Source of the DNA: Candidatus Thorarchaeota archaeon
GTDB lineage: Archaea; Asgardarchaeota; Thorarchaeia; Thorarchaeales; Thorarchaeaceae
Direction of reading: 5' to 3'
DNA: 47,261 nucleotides
NCBI GenBank assembly: GCA_046482545.1
Contig: JAWOEX010000042.1
Span: 1 to 47,261, forward strand
The position numbers and the translations under genes were made by a program. The first letter of the stretch is position 1. Every line of letters begins with the position of its first letter. This document shows positions 31,491 to 36,312 of this stretch, one piece after another. The notes below the pieces were generated by a model that worked only from the letters and a program-made list of their open reading frames with translations, was not told the origin of the DNA and ran no database searches.

Positions 31491-32891
31491 TTGAGTATGA
31501 AGGAATACGATGTTCTTGTCGTTGGTGGCGGTTCTGCGAACAAGATTGCATTCTGGGCCTATGAAAATGGATGGAGAACAGCTCTTGTTGAACATGGTCC
31601 AATCGGCGGTACCTGCTTAAACCGGGGTTGCGTTCCCAGCAAAATGATGATTTACCCGGCCGATATTCAACACGAGGCGTTAATGTCATCAAATGTCAAT
31701 CTCAATTTGAAACTCGGTTCTCCAAATTTCTCGGAATTGATGGAACGAGTTCGGGCGAGAAGGCGTCATGCGACAAATTACAAAGCCAAAGTCATAGAGG
31801 AGGCTGATTCCTATCATTGGTACAGGGAAACTGGGGTCTTTGTGGATGATTACGTAGTAGAAGTTGACAATGAAGAATTGACAGCCAATTGCATTGTGAT
31901 AGCTACAGGCGCACGGCCATTAATACCACCAATCCAAGGAATCGATGAGGTTGATTATCTGACAACTCGAACCATTTTTGAATTGACAAAACAACCGGAA
32001 CAGATGACGATTATAGGGGGCGGGTATGTTGCGGCTGAGTTTGGTCATTTCTTCAGCGCGATGGGGACAGAGGTTACAATTGTCGGAAGGAACCCGTTTC
32101 TGGTGAAACATGAGGATACAGATGTATCTGAGTTGTTACGACGGGAGCTCTCAAAGAGAATGACAATCCTCACGAATCACGAGGTTACACGAGTCGAACA
32201 CGGCCGAAACCACAAGATGGCAATTGCGAAGAATCGTGACTCTGGTGAGGAGGTGGAGGTGCCTTCGGATACGTTGTTAGTGGCCACTGGAAGAAGACCA
32301 AATTCGGATATATGTAAACCAGAGAAGACAGGCGTGGAACTCGACCAACATGGTTTCATCAAAACTGATGAGTACCTGCAGACCTCTGTTGAGGGAATCT
32401 GGGCACTTGGAGATGCAACTGGGTTGCCAATGTTCAAACACGTAGCTGATAGAGAAGCTGAAATCGTATGGCACAACATGCAAGCTTCTCAATCGGGAGA
32501 TCAATCTCTCCGTTCGATAGACTATACCGCCATTCCATATGCTGTCTTTTCGTATCCTCAAATAGCAACAGTTGGGAAGACACTTTCTGAAGCTAAGGAG
32601 ACGAGTTCAAGTCTTCTAGTTGGTAGGGCAGAATACACAGATGTTGCCAAGGGTGACGCCATGGGGAAACCAAAAGGATTCTGTAGAGTAATTGTAGATG
32701 CAGAATCTGAGGCGATATTGGGTGGGAGCATAATCGGCCCATTTGCTCCCATATTGATTCAACCAATCACCCAAGCCATGTACACAAGCGACAGGCACTA
32801 TGAACACCTTCTACAACCCATCTACATTCATCCAGCTCTACCTGAAATAGTCAGAAATGCTGTGAGAAACCTAGAGCCCCTAGCGTTGTAA
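31491..32891 (+). CDS. dihydrolipoamide dehydrogenase / mycothione reductase-like flavoprotein disulfide reductase
   Basis: GGTCLNRGCVPSK, IGGGYVAAE, ATGRRPN, IWALGD and IHPALPE. Confidence 0.92.
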   Translation: MSMKEYDVLVVGGGSANKIAFWAYENGWRTALVEHGPIGGTCLNRGCVPSKMMIYPADIQHEALMSSNVNLNLKLGSPNFSELMERVRARRRHATNYKAKVIEEADSYHWYRETGVFVDDYVVEVDNEELTANCIVIATGARPLIPPIQGIDEVDYLTTRTIFELTKQPEQMTIIGGGYVAAEFGHFFSAMGTEVTIVGRNPFLVKHEDTDVSELLRRELSKRMTILTNHEVTRVEHGRNHKMAIAKNRDSGEEVEVPSDTLLVATGRRPNSDICKPEKTGVELDQHGFIKTDEYLQTSVEGIWALGDATGLPMFKHVADREAEIVWHNMQASQSGDQSLRSIDYTAIPYAVFSYPQIATVGKTLSEAKETSSSLLVGRAEYTDVAKGDAMGKPKGFCRVIVDAESEAILGGSIIGPFAPILIQPITQAMYTSDRHYEHLLQPIYIHPALPEIVRNAVRNLEPLAL

Positions 32892-33065
32892 ATGGAGAAA
32901 AAAATGCTGGCCCCATTATGAGACTACGGTGAACTTGAACTCATCAAAAGACACTGTCACCATTAGATTAAGATATGCAACACCTATGAAGATGGAGCAG
33001 TCCCTCAGATTCAATGAAGGTTTTGGTAATTTGAATTTGTCTCGAAAGACTCATTTGTAAGCACC

Positions 33066-33785
33066 TTGTCTAATCAGGAGAGTAAAATGAACGTCTTGGT
33101 TCTCAATAGTAGTCCTCATAAGAATGAACAGGGAACGGGAAATATCCTCAATCCTTTCATTAAAGGGATGAAAGCGGCAGGCGCTGACGTAGAAATCGTT
33201 TTCGTTAATGATTTAAATATCAAACCTTGTTTGGGCTGTTTTTCATGTTGGGGCTCAGAATCAGGTGAATGCGTCCACGATGATGATATGACCGAACTCC
33301 TTCCAAAGATGCAGAATGCAGATATCCAAGTACTCGCTACCCCCATTTATGTAGATGGCATGACGGGTCCCTTGAAGACAGTGCTGGACCGAAGCATTCC
33401 TCTAGTTACTGGTAAATGGATATTGCGGGATGGACATTGCAGACACCCGCTGCGGGAAGGAGAAGAAGGGAGCAAGCTAGTATTGCTTTCGGTATGTGGG
33501 TTCACAGAGCTTGACAATTTTGATCCACTCATAGCACATGTAAAGGCCCTATGCAAGAACATGAACTCTGAGTATGTCGGAGCTGTTTTGCGTCCGTATT
33601 CTTGGGCACTTCCACTCATTCAGAAAGCGGGAATCGATGTGAGCATGGTGTACGAAGCAGCCGAAGAAGCCGGGCGCCAAGTAATCGCAGAGGGCACAAT
33701 GGAAGAAGAAACGCTTGAAAAGATAGCTGCTCCCTTCGTTCCGAAGGAAGTACTCGTGGACGAGGTAAACAAGCATTTCAGCTAA
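33066..33785 (+). CDS. iron-sulfur flavoprotein / NADPH-dependent FMN reductase family
   Basis: NSSP, PCLGCFSCW..C, DDM and ATPIY. Confidence 0.88.
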   Translation: MSNQESKMNVLVLNSSPHKNEQGTGNILNPFIKGMKAAGADVEIVFVNDLNIKPCLGCFSCWGSESGECVHDDDMTELLPKMQNADIQVLATPIYVDGMTGPLKTVLDRSIPLVTGKWILRDGHCRHPLREGEEGSKLVLLSVCGFTELDNFDPLIAHVKALCKNMNSEYVGAVLRPYSWALPLIQKAGIDVSMVYEAAEEAGRQVIAEGTMEEETLEKIAAPFVPKEVLVDEVNKHFS

Positions 33786-33866: not shown

Positions 33867-36107
33867 TTAGCTGACTATTTCAATTCTGCCAGAACCTGAA
33901 TCGATGACATGGCCTATCTTGACAGCGTTGTCGATCCCTCGTCGGGCCAATTGTTTCATCAAATCAGGTAGTCGGTCTTCAGGTAGGCTAATCAATAGGC
34001 CACCAGATGTTTGGGCATCAGCTAACAACAACAGATCAATCTGAGTTATGCCTTCTTCAATATCGAGGTGAGGCCTTACATGACTGAGATTGTTCTTAGT
34101 GCCCCCGGGTATGACACCAGCTCCAGCAAGTTGTCGTGCGGTTTCTAGTATAGGTACTGCACTTGCCGAAATTGAGACATCAACACCACTACCTGCAGTC
34201 ATTTCCCTCAGGTGCCCCAGTAATCCGAAACCGGTGATGTCAGTACACGCGCTAACTCCGACTTCCATCATGGCCTCGGCCGCTCCCTGATTGAGGGATG
34301 CCATCAGGTCTCTAGCTATTGTAGTAGTTTCTTCATCTGCGAGCCCCCGCTTAACTGCCGTCGATATTATGCCAAGTCCAATAGGCTTAGTGAGAACGAG
34401 AACATCGCCTGGCTTGGCAGTGCTATTGCGCACCACCTCATCAGGGTGAACAACTCCAGTAACTGCCAGACCGTATTTCGGCTCGGTATCTTCAACAGTA
34501 TGTCCTCCAATTATGCTGATTCCTGCCTCAGCGGCTTTGTCCTGTGCACCTGCCAGTATCTCTTCCAGTACCGATAGAGGTAATCTGCTGGAGGGAAAAC
34601 CTACAATGTTCACGCCTAGTATGGGTCTTGCACCCATTGCATAGATATCACTCAACGAATTTGCGGCCGAGATTGCACCAAACCAGTATGGCTCATCTAC
34701 AATCGGTGTGAAGAAATCAACCGTCTGAACAATTGCCATCTCATCATTTACACGATAGACGGCGGCGTCATCTGAAGTCTCAATTCCAACCAAGATATTG
34801 GGATCTGTAGGAACAGGCAGCGTTCTTAGTACTTCCTCAAGTGCCTGTGGACGTAACTTACAGGCGCAACCGAGGCCATGAGTATAGCGAGTCAGTTTGT
34901 ATGTCTCTTTTTGTTCTGATTCACGTAGAGAAACGGCACCGGGTGCTGGCTGTAAACGTTTCACTGTTGATGATACAACATCTACTACTTTCTCTATTTC
35001 CTTCGCAGTGGTCCCTCTTCCAACCGAAAAGCGAATAGTGCCCATGGCCCAGTCAACAGGAACCCCCATGGCTTCTAGAACCGCAGACACATCGATATCT
35101 TCAGCATGACATGCTGCTCCGGCCGAAGCTGCAATTTCATCCTGAATCTCGGAGAGTAGAGTATTAGCCTCTATGCCACGGAAACTAAGACTTAGTGTAT
35201 TTGGCAATCGCAGTTCTGGATGGCCATTCAGTCTGAACCTTTCTCCACGTAGTTCGTCAAGCAAACCATCATGAAGCATATCACGCATCCTCTCGAAATG
35301 TTGCATATTCTTCTCTAAGTCACGCTGTGCGATCTCACAGGCCTTCCCAAGCCCGACTATCTCAAGTACATTTTCAGTGCCAGGGCGTCGATCCATTTCA
35401 TGATCAGCCCCGTGCAATATCTTCTCCAGCGTGGTTCCAGTGCGAATGTAAAGTGCGCCAATCCCTTTTGGAGCGTACAACTTGTGTCCTGCGAGTGAAA
35501 GCAAGTCCACACCAAGGTCATCGACACTTACAGGTATCTTCCCAATCGATTGTGCAGCGTCAGTATGCATGAGTGCCCCGTGTTCATGGGCGATTTCAGC
35601 AAGCTCAGCGATTGGTTGTATCGTCCCAACTTCATTATTCGCGTGCATAACTGTAACAAGTATAGTGCCTAGAGTAATGGTTTCTCTGAGGTCTTCCGGG
35701 TCTACTCGGCCATACTCATCGACTGGGAGAACTGAAATGGTAAAACCCTGCGTTTCGAGCCAATCGCACACTTCGAGAACAGCAGGATGCTCTATTGCTG
35801 ATGTTATGATGTGGTTCCCTTTGTCCTTGTGCTCTAGAGCCGCTCCTTTGATTGCGTAGTTGTTACTCTCGGTACCGCCGCTTGTGAAGACAATCTCTTC
35901 GGTCTTGCACTCTAAAAGGTCCGCAACCTGTTTCCGAGCAGATTCAACGGCCAGCTTAGCTTTAGCTCCGTAAGGATGGCTACTAGATGGATTTCCAAAA
36001 TGCTCGAAGATGTATGGCACCATTGCCTCTCCAACCTCAGCAGCAATGGGAGTTGTTGCATTATAATCCAGGTAAATCGGGTGTTCAGAGCCTTCGTCTC
36101 GTGGCAT
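33867..36107 (-). CDS. selD: NifS/selenocysteine-lyase-like domain fused to selenophosphate synthetase SelD
   Basis: N-terminal YLDYNATTP, GNPSS, TSGGTESNN, GHKLYAPKG, RPGTENV and GAACH. C-terminal GCACK, DDAAV, VDFFTP, SDIYAMG, DITGFGLLGH and QTSGGLL. Confidence 0.95.
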   Translation of the reverse strand: MPRDEGSEHPIYLDYNATTPIAAEVGEAMVPYIFEHFGNPSSSHPYGAKAKLAVESARKQVADLLECKTEEIVFTSGGTESNNYAIKGAALEHKDKGNHIITSAIEHPAVLEVCDWLETQGFTISVLPVDEYGRVDPEDLRETITLGTILVTVMHANNEVGTIQPIAELAEIAHEHGALMHTDAAQSIGKIPVSVDDLGVDLLSLAGHKLYAPKGIGALYIRTGTTLEKILHGADHEMDRRPGTENVLEIVGLGKACEIAQRDLEKNMQHFERMRDMLHDGLLDELRGERFRLNGHPELRLPNTLSLSFRGIEANTLLSEIQDEIAASAGAACHAEDIDVSAVLEAMGVPVDWAMGTIRFSVGRGTTAKEIEKVVDVVSSTVKRLQPAPGAVSLRESEQKETYKLTRYTHGLGCACKLRPQALEEVLRTLPVPTDPNILVGIETSDDAAVYRVNDEMAIVQTVDFFTPIVDEPYWFGAISAANSLSDIYAMGARPILGVNIVGFPSSRLPLSVLEEILAGAQDKAAEAGISIIGGHTVEDTEPKYGLAVTGVVHPDEVVRNSTAKPGDVLVLTKPIGLGIISTAVKRGLADEETTTIARDLMASLNQGAAEAMMEVGVSACTDITGFGLLGHLREMTAGSGVDVSISASAVPILETARQLAGAGVIPGGTKNNLSHVRPHLDIEEGITQIDLLLLADAQTSGGLLISLPEDRLPDLMKQLARRGIDNAVKIGHVIDSGSGRIEIVS

Positions 36108-36283
36108 AACTGAATGTCAGCTCCTTCTATCAGTTTCAGATATGCGTTCAACTATTTTTACCCTTATGTGTCTATCAGAATGGCAACTTGGTAAACAAGC
36201 CATGAGATATCCGGTGCAGTGGTGCGTGTTTGCTGCTCAACAATACGAACTAGATAAGAAAGCCAACACATAAAGGACTAGGA

Positions 36284-36304
36284 CGGGGGTATTCAGTACC
36301 CCCG
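36284..36304 (-). terminator. GC-rich hairpin just after the stop of 36313-37242
   Basis: CGGGGGTA-ttcag-TACCCCCG, a perfect 8-bp stem followed by pyrimidine-rich sequence on the minus strand. Confidence 0.6.
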
Positions 36305-36312
36305 GTTCTAAA

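Follow-up and report, generated by a model that had tools for sequence, protein, structure and literature searches.

A window of 47,261 nucleotides, comprising all of the analyzed stretch of contig JAWOEX010000042.1 from a Candidatus Thorarchaeota assembly (GCA_046482545.1), carries on its minus strand a gene in which a NifS-like domain is fused to a selenophosphate synthetase (SelD) domain. As the initial annotation of this DNA had described, the gene is a single open reading frame (ORF) of 746 residues at 33867–36107, and it is intact, with zero internal stops along its whole length. The gene and its parts are as follows.

33867–36107, minus strand: whole NifS-like/SelD fusion gene, 746 aa, with ATG at 36107 and TAA at 33867–33869
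34950–36077, minus strand: N-terminal group-I NifS-like pyridoxal phosphate (PLP) domain, residues 11–386 (Pfam, NCBIfam and PDB matches)
35784–35786, minus strand: codon of Pro108 (EHPA), at the position of Asp146 in human selenocysteine lyase (SCLY) and of Lys in IscS (alignments)
35481–35492, minus strand: Ala206-Gly-His-Lys209, the motif of the PLP lysine; its Ala takes the place of Val256 in SCLY and of Ser in desulfurases (alignments)
35106–35111, minus strand: catalytic Cys333 (TGT) with the adjacent His334, in the mobile loop SAGAACHA (motif scan and alignments)
34911–34949, minus strand: interdomain linker of ~13 residues, 387–399 (domain limits; residue 401 pairs with residue 4 of E. 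coli SelD)
33870–34910, minus strand: C-terminal bacterial-type SelD, residues 400–746 (TIGR00476, NF002098 and E. coli SelD match)
34857–34868, minus strand: SelD active-site loop Cys414 (TGC)-Ala-Cys416-Lys417, equivalent to E. coli Cys17/Cys19/Lys20 (alignment)
36108–36312, minus strand: 5' intergenic region (sequence read)

Pfam recognizes both halves, with Aminotran_5 at residues 11–374 (E 1.6e-79, 268 bits) and AIRS plus AIRS_C at 446–743. The C-terminal half passes both NCBIfam models for SelD (TIGR00476, 394 bits against a cut-off of 125; NF002098, 373 bits against 299). The N-terminal half scores best against NifS (TIGR03402, 485.6 bits), and also high against DndA and IscS (TIGR02006, 393.8 bits), while remaining under the equivalog cut-offs of NifS (530.75), IscS (643.2) and DndA; its score against the SclA model NF040779 is 119 bits, below the cut-off of 525. 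Motifs occur at residues 14 (DYNATTP), 106 (EHPA), 208–209 (HK), 241 (RPGTEN), 330 (GAACH) and 413 (GCACK), and the four quoted in the initial annotation (DYNATTP, RPGTEN, GAACH and EHPA) all lie in the N-terminal half. Lys209, His107 of the EH motif and Cys333 each align with their equivalents in IscS, NifS and SCLY, as in group-I NifS-like PLP enzymes of the class V aminotransferase fold. HMMER alignment of HGLGCACK with HGAGCGCK of E. coli SelD sets Cys414 and Lys417 on Cys17 and Lys20, bearing out the earlier reading that the catalytic residue of this SelD is Cys rather than selenocysteine (Sec). The protein thus has two complete catalytic centers with a linker of about 13 residues between them. 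An assembly artefact can be rejected, since over 100 independent contigs and 11 further Thorarchaeial genomes show this architecture.

Selenium machinery of the host genome

The host genome (3.05 Mb, 98.9% complete) has an archaeal/eukaryotic type of Sec pathway. The genes that the initial annotation had singled out for a search, namely those for tRNA-Sec (60 bits; anticodon TCA by ARAGORN), PSTK, SepSecS (440 bits) and EFsec, form an intact cluster on contig C34. A second, Sec-type SelD, singled out in the same way, was not found: in profile and tblastn searches of the genome the fusion is the sole SelD, and the remaining AIRS-family matches reach at most 90 bits. One of these, a C20 ORF of 371 aa that scores 90 bits with SelD, was rejected as a SelD because reading through its TGA reveals no Cys/Sec-Lys loop. 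As the only SelD in a genome with a Sec cluster, the fusion is the expected source of selenophosphate for SepSecS.

Searches of the genome for SelU, the last of the genes singled out, and for YqeC found neither, which leaves Sec as the only detectable selenium trait. That trait is in use, since a motif scan located a split VhuU-type selenoprotein, a short ORF MTDEIDQGLLNLLEMVVRCYDC-U-LSCGAH (reading RCYDC-U-LSCGAH) on the minus strand of C34 near 77837. This Sec ORF escapes domain searches. Pfam-based searches of the genome for FlpD, [NiFe]-hydrogenase large subunits and AhpC-TSA returned Cys forms throughout (hydrogenase motif DPCxSC), and a scan for Sec/Cys paralogues within the genome gave nothing usable.

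The intact Sec pathway also bears on the idea that the enzyme activates sulfur instead and yields a product of the thiophosphate type, a speculation already made for SelD-like proteins in sulfur-reducing archaea. A review names SelD-like proteins possibly engaged in sulfur metabolism (PMC13188914), and the N-terminal domain could work as a cysteine desulfurase. However, the C-terminal domain passes the equivalog cut-offs of true SelD, and the Sec pathway requires a SelD of which the genome holds no other copy. We therefore consider sulfur activation very improbable.

Distribution and bacterial affinity of the fusion

We surveyed 87 species of Thorarchaeia and, more widely, 331 Asgard genomes, of which 251 were from other Asgard groups. 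A native archaeal SelD of ~350 aa with one in-frame TGA (200–223 bits) is present in 62 of the 87 Thorarchaeial species, and the fusion, as open frames of ~745–780 aa scoring 390–405 bits, in 12. Only two species hold both kinds (G008, locus L029, and G009, locus L027), and these may be intermediates of SelD replacement. Across the 331 Asgard genomes a bacterial-type SelD is confined to this one family, and neither it nor the fusion was found in any of the 251 others sampled. Five further genomes with the fusion as their only SelD were checked for SepSecS, and all have kept it. Native Sec-type SelD has been described in Asgard archaea (PMC11227280), in a paper whose main text does not include the fusion.

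In the databases the architecture is abundant and mostly bacterial, with matches to 7266 of 8000 scored candidates. The best 120 matches are 68–82% identical over 98–100% of the length, and their named hosts are Thorarchaeota, Anaerolineae, Latescibacteria and Eisenbacteria; copies at 57–62% identity come from Krumholzibacteriota and Bacteroidota. The SelD half scores 279 bits with E. coli SelD versus 117 bits with human SPS1, and the unfused SelDs closest to it (64–70% identity) belong to Chloroflexota. In the full-length tree the Thorarchaeial fusions form one group, which includes a few unlabeled metagenome sequences. The sister of this group consists of Anaerolineae, Eisenbacteria and Latescibacteria, and the fusions of Bacteroidota and Krumholzibacteriota fall outside both.

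Because the fusion occurs in 12 of 87 Thorarchaeia and no other sampled Asgard, with a Sec-type SelD in 62 species and both genes in only two, we interpret it as a probable bacterial xenologue that displaced the native gene. The simplest reading would be an old transfer followed by loss of one of the two SelDs. The GC content at third codon positions of the fusion gene equals that of neighboring genes, which points to an old resident.

NifS-SelD fusions were already known in some bacteria and protists, as the initial annotation stated. Zhang et al. (2008, PMC2398784) described the fusion type from Geobacter sp. FRC-32, and fusions to selenophosphate synthetase (SPS) were later reported in bacteria, Naegleria and Acanthamoeba, with the protist cases ascribed to horizontal transfer from bacteria (Mariotti et al. 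2015, PMC4561486). The architecture is thus known and common, and is no Asgard novelty.

The initial annotation had also suggested that the gene, as part of an Asgard archaeon, is relevant to the origin of eukaryotic selenium recycling. In its strongest form this would make the fusion vertically inherited Asgard heritage, resembling the ancestor of eukaryotic SCLY and SEPHS2. The host is indeed an Asgard archaeon, mammalian SCLY has the very same GAACH loop, and SCLY groups with the clade of the N-terminal domain (see below). However, the SelD half is bacterial in type, the gene is about 70% identical to bacterial copies, and the deeper branches of the fusion tree are bacterial. The eukaryote-like SelD of Thorarchaeia is a separate Sec-type gene (PMC11227280), the one that the fusion replaces, and the patchy presence of the fusion in Thorarchaeia, together with its absence from the other Asgards sampled, is at odds with vertical descent, as is the transfer proposed for protist fusions (PMC4561486). 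These results do not support the suggestion; Asgard heritage is already largely refuted, and we give it almost no credence. The gene is a newly found member of a known and common fusion family, acquired from bacteria, and offers no window on eukaryotic origins.

The N-terminal domain and its relation to selenocysteine lyase

The initial annotation judged the N-terminal half to be more SCLY-like than IscS-like, a view that holds in part. As a rule, Cys and Sec are both substrates of group-I desulfurases (PMC3266270). Collins et al. (PMC3266270) set Sec-specific SCLY apart at Asp146 (the decisive position), Val256 and His389, and Asp146 is necessary and sufficient for the Sec specificity of human SCLY (PMC3266270). 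The residues at these three positions, in that order, are as follows.

Mammalian SCLY: D, V, H
E. coli IscS: K, S, T
Rhizobial NifS: P, S, T
N-terminal domain of the fusion: P, A, H

The fusion has His directly after the catalytic Cys (Cys333-His334), within a pentapeptide GAACH identical to that of SCLY. At the Asp146 position it has Pro108 (EHPA), versus EHDS in five mammalian SCLYs, and at the Val256 position Ala206, which is neither Val nor the Ser/Thr of non-specific enzymes. The motifs that had been contrasted were confirmed in the sequences themselves: mammalian SCLY carries EHDS, IVGHK and GAACHS, and E. coli IscS carries EHKA and SSGSACTS. EHPA and RPGTEN do not discriminate because both are common in ordinary NifS-like proteins, and a rhizobial NifS from a nif cluster also has EHPA.

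Overall scores lie nearer the desulfurases, with PDB matches of 316–337 bits for IscS/NFS1 versus 240–245 bits for SCLY, and the catalytic loop alone best matches a Helicobacter-type NifS/IscS. Scored against SCLY, however, the domain reaches 245 bits versus 191 for rhizobial NifS and 176 for E. coli IscS. The P-A-C-H signature, found in 66 of the 181 sequences of our set, many of them stand-alone proteins of ~380 aa, is not peculiar to the fusion. With mammalian SCLY as the query, 25 of the 30 top matches in this set carry it, and the gap between group medians is modest (229 vs 218 bits). In the ESM Atlas the domain matched nothing beyond generic clusters of bacterial desulfurases, with no SCLY among them. 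Membership of the SCLY, SclA, IscS and nif-NifS equivalogs was rejected in each case; scores lie below the cut-offs of the last three, and Asp146 of SCLY is absent. The part of the earlier judgment that stands is therefore the His after Cys, the SCLY score higher than those of IscS and NifS, and the tree placement that follows; overall similarity, the Pro in place of Asp146 and the non-discriminating motifs do not support it.

The trees used a reference set chosen by similarity to the query, with mammalian SCLY sequences retrieved by a 46-residue stretch of rat SCL; because only mammalian sequences represent SCLY, it sits on one long branch. An LG+C20 tree under posterior mean site frequencies placed mammalian SCLY within a clade defined by an Ala-Cys-His (ACH) loop (Shimodaira–Hasegawa-like approximate likelihood ratio test, SH-aLRT, 81–91). 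Under LG+F+G4 the grouping of SCLY with the ACH clade had an SH-aLRT of 94.9, and in the best-scoring tree SCLY was sister to that clade. In approximately unbiased (AU) tests over all columns, SCLY with IscS was rejected (p 0.007) and SCLY with the NifS/other group was not (p 0.08). After removal of 21 loop and signature columns, SCLY and the ACH clade were again recovered together (SH-aLRT 86), and no alternative was rejected (SCLY with IscS, p 0.09). The AU tests relied on fast tree searches under LG+F+G4, and one constrained tree beat the "free" tree, so these searches are imperfect. With moderate confidence, then, SCLY is sister to or inside the ACH clade, and the likeness to SCLY would be real at the level of the clade.

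Gene fusions within the clade were surveyed in the 150 nearest representatives of clusters at 50% identity. The Cys-His loop occurs in all ten representatives that carry SelD, and SelD is absent from all 80 with other loops; since relatives are not independent, this pattern is no statistical proof. One ACH-clade member (P0364, 877 aa) fuses a NifS-like domain to a full SelA (Se-cys_synth_N plus SelA domain), an architecture of which we found no mention in the literature examined. In further members the fusion partner is a methyltransferase or Maf. Recurrent fusion to two enzymes of the Sec pathway, SelD and SelA, argues for a selenium-related role and supports it as a predicted property of the clade.

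Reviews from 2019–2026 describe SCLY homologues in bacteria and archaea as not found or ambiguous. It is possible, and we put this forward tentatively, that the ACH clade is the prokaryotic counterpart and closest relative of eukaryotic SCLY, dedicated to selenium delivery, with SCLY descended from such a bacterial enzyme and Asp146 gained later.

The closest plasmid-borne homologue of the N-terminal domain (56% identical, signature P-A-C-R) lies on Methylocystis rosea plasmid pGW6_1 (locus L036, NZ_CP034087.1 5454–16548). Its cluster encodes ArsR, a metallo-beta-lactamase-type (MBL) hydrolase, a major facilitator superfamily (MFS) transporter, DsrE, the desulfurase and two methyltransferases, and this composition suggests a chalcogen-handling or methylation cassette.

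Two further NifS-like paralogues of the host, whose loops are of the usual GSAC(S/T)S form, bear on whether the N-terminal domain might be an ordinary cysteine desulfurase, serving sulfur mobilization for Fe-S or thio-cofactor work and fused by chance, with the SelD half using free selenide and no channeling. The higher overall score with IscS/NFS1 than with SCLY is in keeping with this, as are the Pro shared with bona fide nif NifS at the specificity position and the acceptance of both Cys and Sec by group-I desulfurases (PMC3266270). Yet the host already has a separate, catalytically complete IscS/NifS-type paralogue on contig C34 (107854–108972, minus strand; 42% identical to the domain), as well as one on contig C20 (212634–213755, plus strand) in which SSNDIY replaces the PLP-lysine motif S(G/A)HK and which probably cannot bind PLP covalently. 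The restriction of SelD fusions to Cys-His loop members and the SelA fusion in the same clade also speak against a chance joining, and we regard an ordinary desulfurase as unlikely. The C34 paralogue reads IEHDCV, with Asp at the SCLY Asp146 position yet a GSACSS loop, and groups with ordinary archaeal and bacterial desulfurases.

Proposed function and comparison with known systems

We consider it likely that the fusion is a bifunctional selenium-activation enzyme of the known NifS-SelD family, which passes Sec-derived selenium to its attached SelD as the sole selenium donor for SepSecS, and that the gene is of bacterial origin and replaced the native SelD. This reading builds on the observed architecture, catalytic residues, sole-SelD status, co-occurrence with Sec machinery, bacterial affinity and patchy distribution. 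NifS-like enzymes act on Sec to give a Cys-S-Se- intermediate and are able to provide SelD with selenium, the Cys17 loop being thought to be the acceptor (PMC4561486, PMC3266270); for group-I enzymes, delivery of selenium to SPS Cys17 by the mobile Cys loop has been proposed (PMC3266270), and NifS-like proteins supply selenium to SelD and their fusions to SPS are predicted to be functional (PMC4561486).

We hypothesize that the PLP domain takes selenium from L-selenocysteine, its presumed substrate, and possibly also acts on Cys, at the PLP site. Selenium would be held as Cys333-S-Se- on the mobile loop and passed to the Gly-rich N-terminal loop of SelD (Cys414/Lys417). This transfer would be intramolecular or, given that each parent enzyme is a homodimer, may take place inside a dimer. 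The SelD domain would then make selenophosphate with ATP, and SepSecS would use it to form the Sec-tRNA(Sec) needed for VhuU and other selenoproteins. The gene, whose closest named relatives are from Chloroflexota/Anaerolineae, would have come from bacteria and taken over from a native Sec-containing SelD, presumably to some benefit. Replacing a Sec-type with a Cys-type SelD makes selenophosphate synthesis independent of Sec insertion.

Several points weigh against this interpretation. The function of the NifS-SelD fusion family is itself a prediction, and the N-terminal domain may also desulfurate cysteine because it lacks the Asp of SCLY. The direction and number of transfers depend on fast maximum-likelihood searches with sparse taxon labels, and some unlabeled metagenome sequences fall within the Thorarchaeial group of the fusion tree. 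Genomic context lends no functional support because the conserved neighbors of the fusion are limited to the genus.

Those neighbors include two genes convergent to the fusion (31491–33785 of the window, plus strand), one for a 466-aa pyridine-nucleotide disulfide oxidoreductase and the other for a 239-aa NADPH-dependent FMN reductase. Both are kept beside the fusion in a genome of the same genus (G079; 79–86% identity) and not in other genera. On the other side of the fusion gene, the intergenic region includes a hairpin that follows the upstream gene, a TATA-like box rich in A/T and AGGAG ~12 nt before the ATG, and on the basis of these elements the gene probably has its own promoter.

Although the fusion architecture is ordinary and very common in anaerobic bacteria, its setting here is instructive. 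A minority of Thorarchaeia appear to have given up a eukaryote-like SelD containing Sec in exchange for a Cys-type NifS-SelD from bacteria and to have retained PSTK and SepSecS, a clean case of a bacterial module in an archaeal/eukaryotic Sec system. Such a swap frees Sec synthesis from its circular need for a selenoprotein. Asgard surveys that use SelD as a marker or count it as a selenoprotein should allow for a Cys-type fusion, and the clade of the N-terminal domain offers a concrete candidate for a prokaryotic, SCLY-like family of selenium delivery.

Among known systems, the reported NifS-SPS fusions (PMC2398784, PMC4561486) have the same order, with the NifS-like domain N-terminal and SelD C-terminal. 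All but that of Geobacter sp. FRC-32 are Cys-type like ours, and they likewise co-occur with Sec machinery and are predicted to synthesize selenophosphate with built-in selenium delivery. Few were reported in those papers, whereas databases now hold thousands. Unlike them, the present fusion has an archaeal, Thorarchaeial host, replaces a Sec-type SelD and would serve PSTK/SepSecS rather than SelA. SCLY (human 3GZC, rat 3A9X) shares with the N-terminal domain the group-I NifS-like fold, the long mobile Cys loop, GAACH, the lack of Ser at the Val256 position and a presumed common role in handing selenium to selenophosphate synthetase, but differs in having Asp146 where the domain has Pro108 and Val where it has Ala, and in being neither fused to SelD nor prokaryotic. 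IscS, NFS1 and nif-cluster NifS share the fold, PLP lysine and loop Cys and give the highest pairwise scores, with EHPA shared by NifS; they differ in the loop, SGSAC(T/S) versus AGAACH, and the domain stays below the NifS, IscS and DndA cut-offs. SclA of Enterococcus faecalis (NF040779) is a bacterial lyase that prefers Sec and whose gene lies in a selD operon. Like the fusion it is a SelD-linked member of the NifS superfamily, but it belongs to a different subfamily, is unfused and serves the selenium-dependent molybdenum hydroxylase trait.

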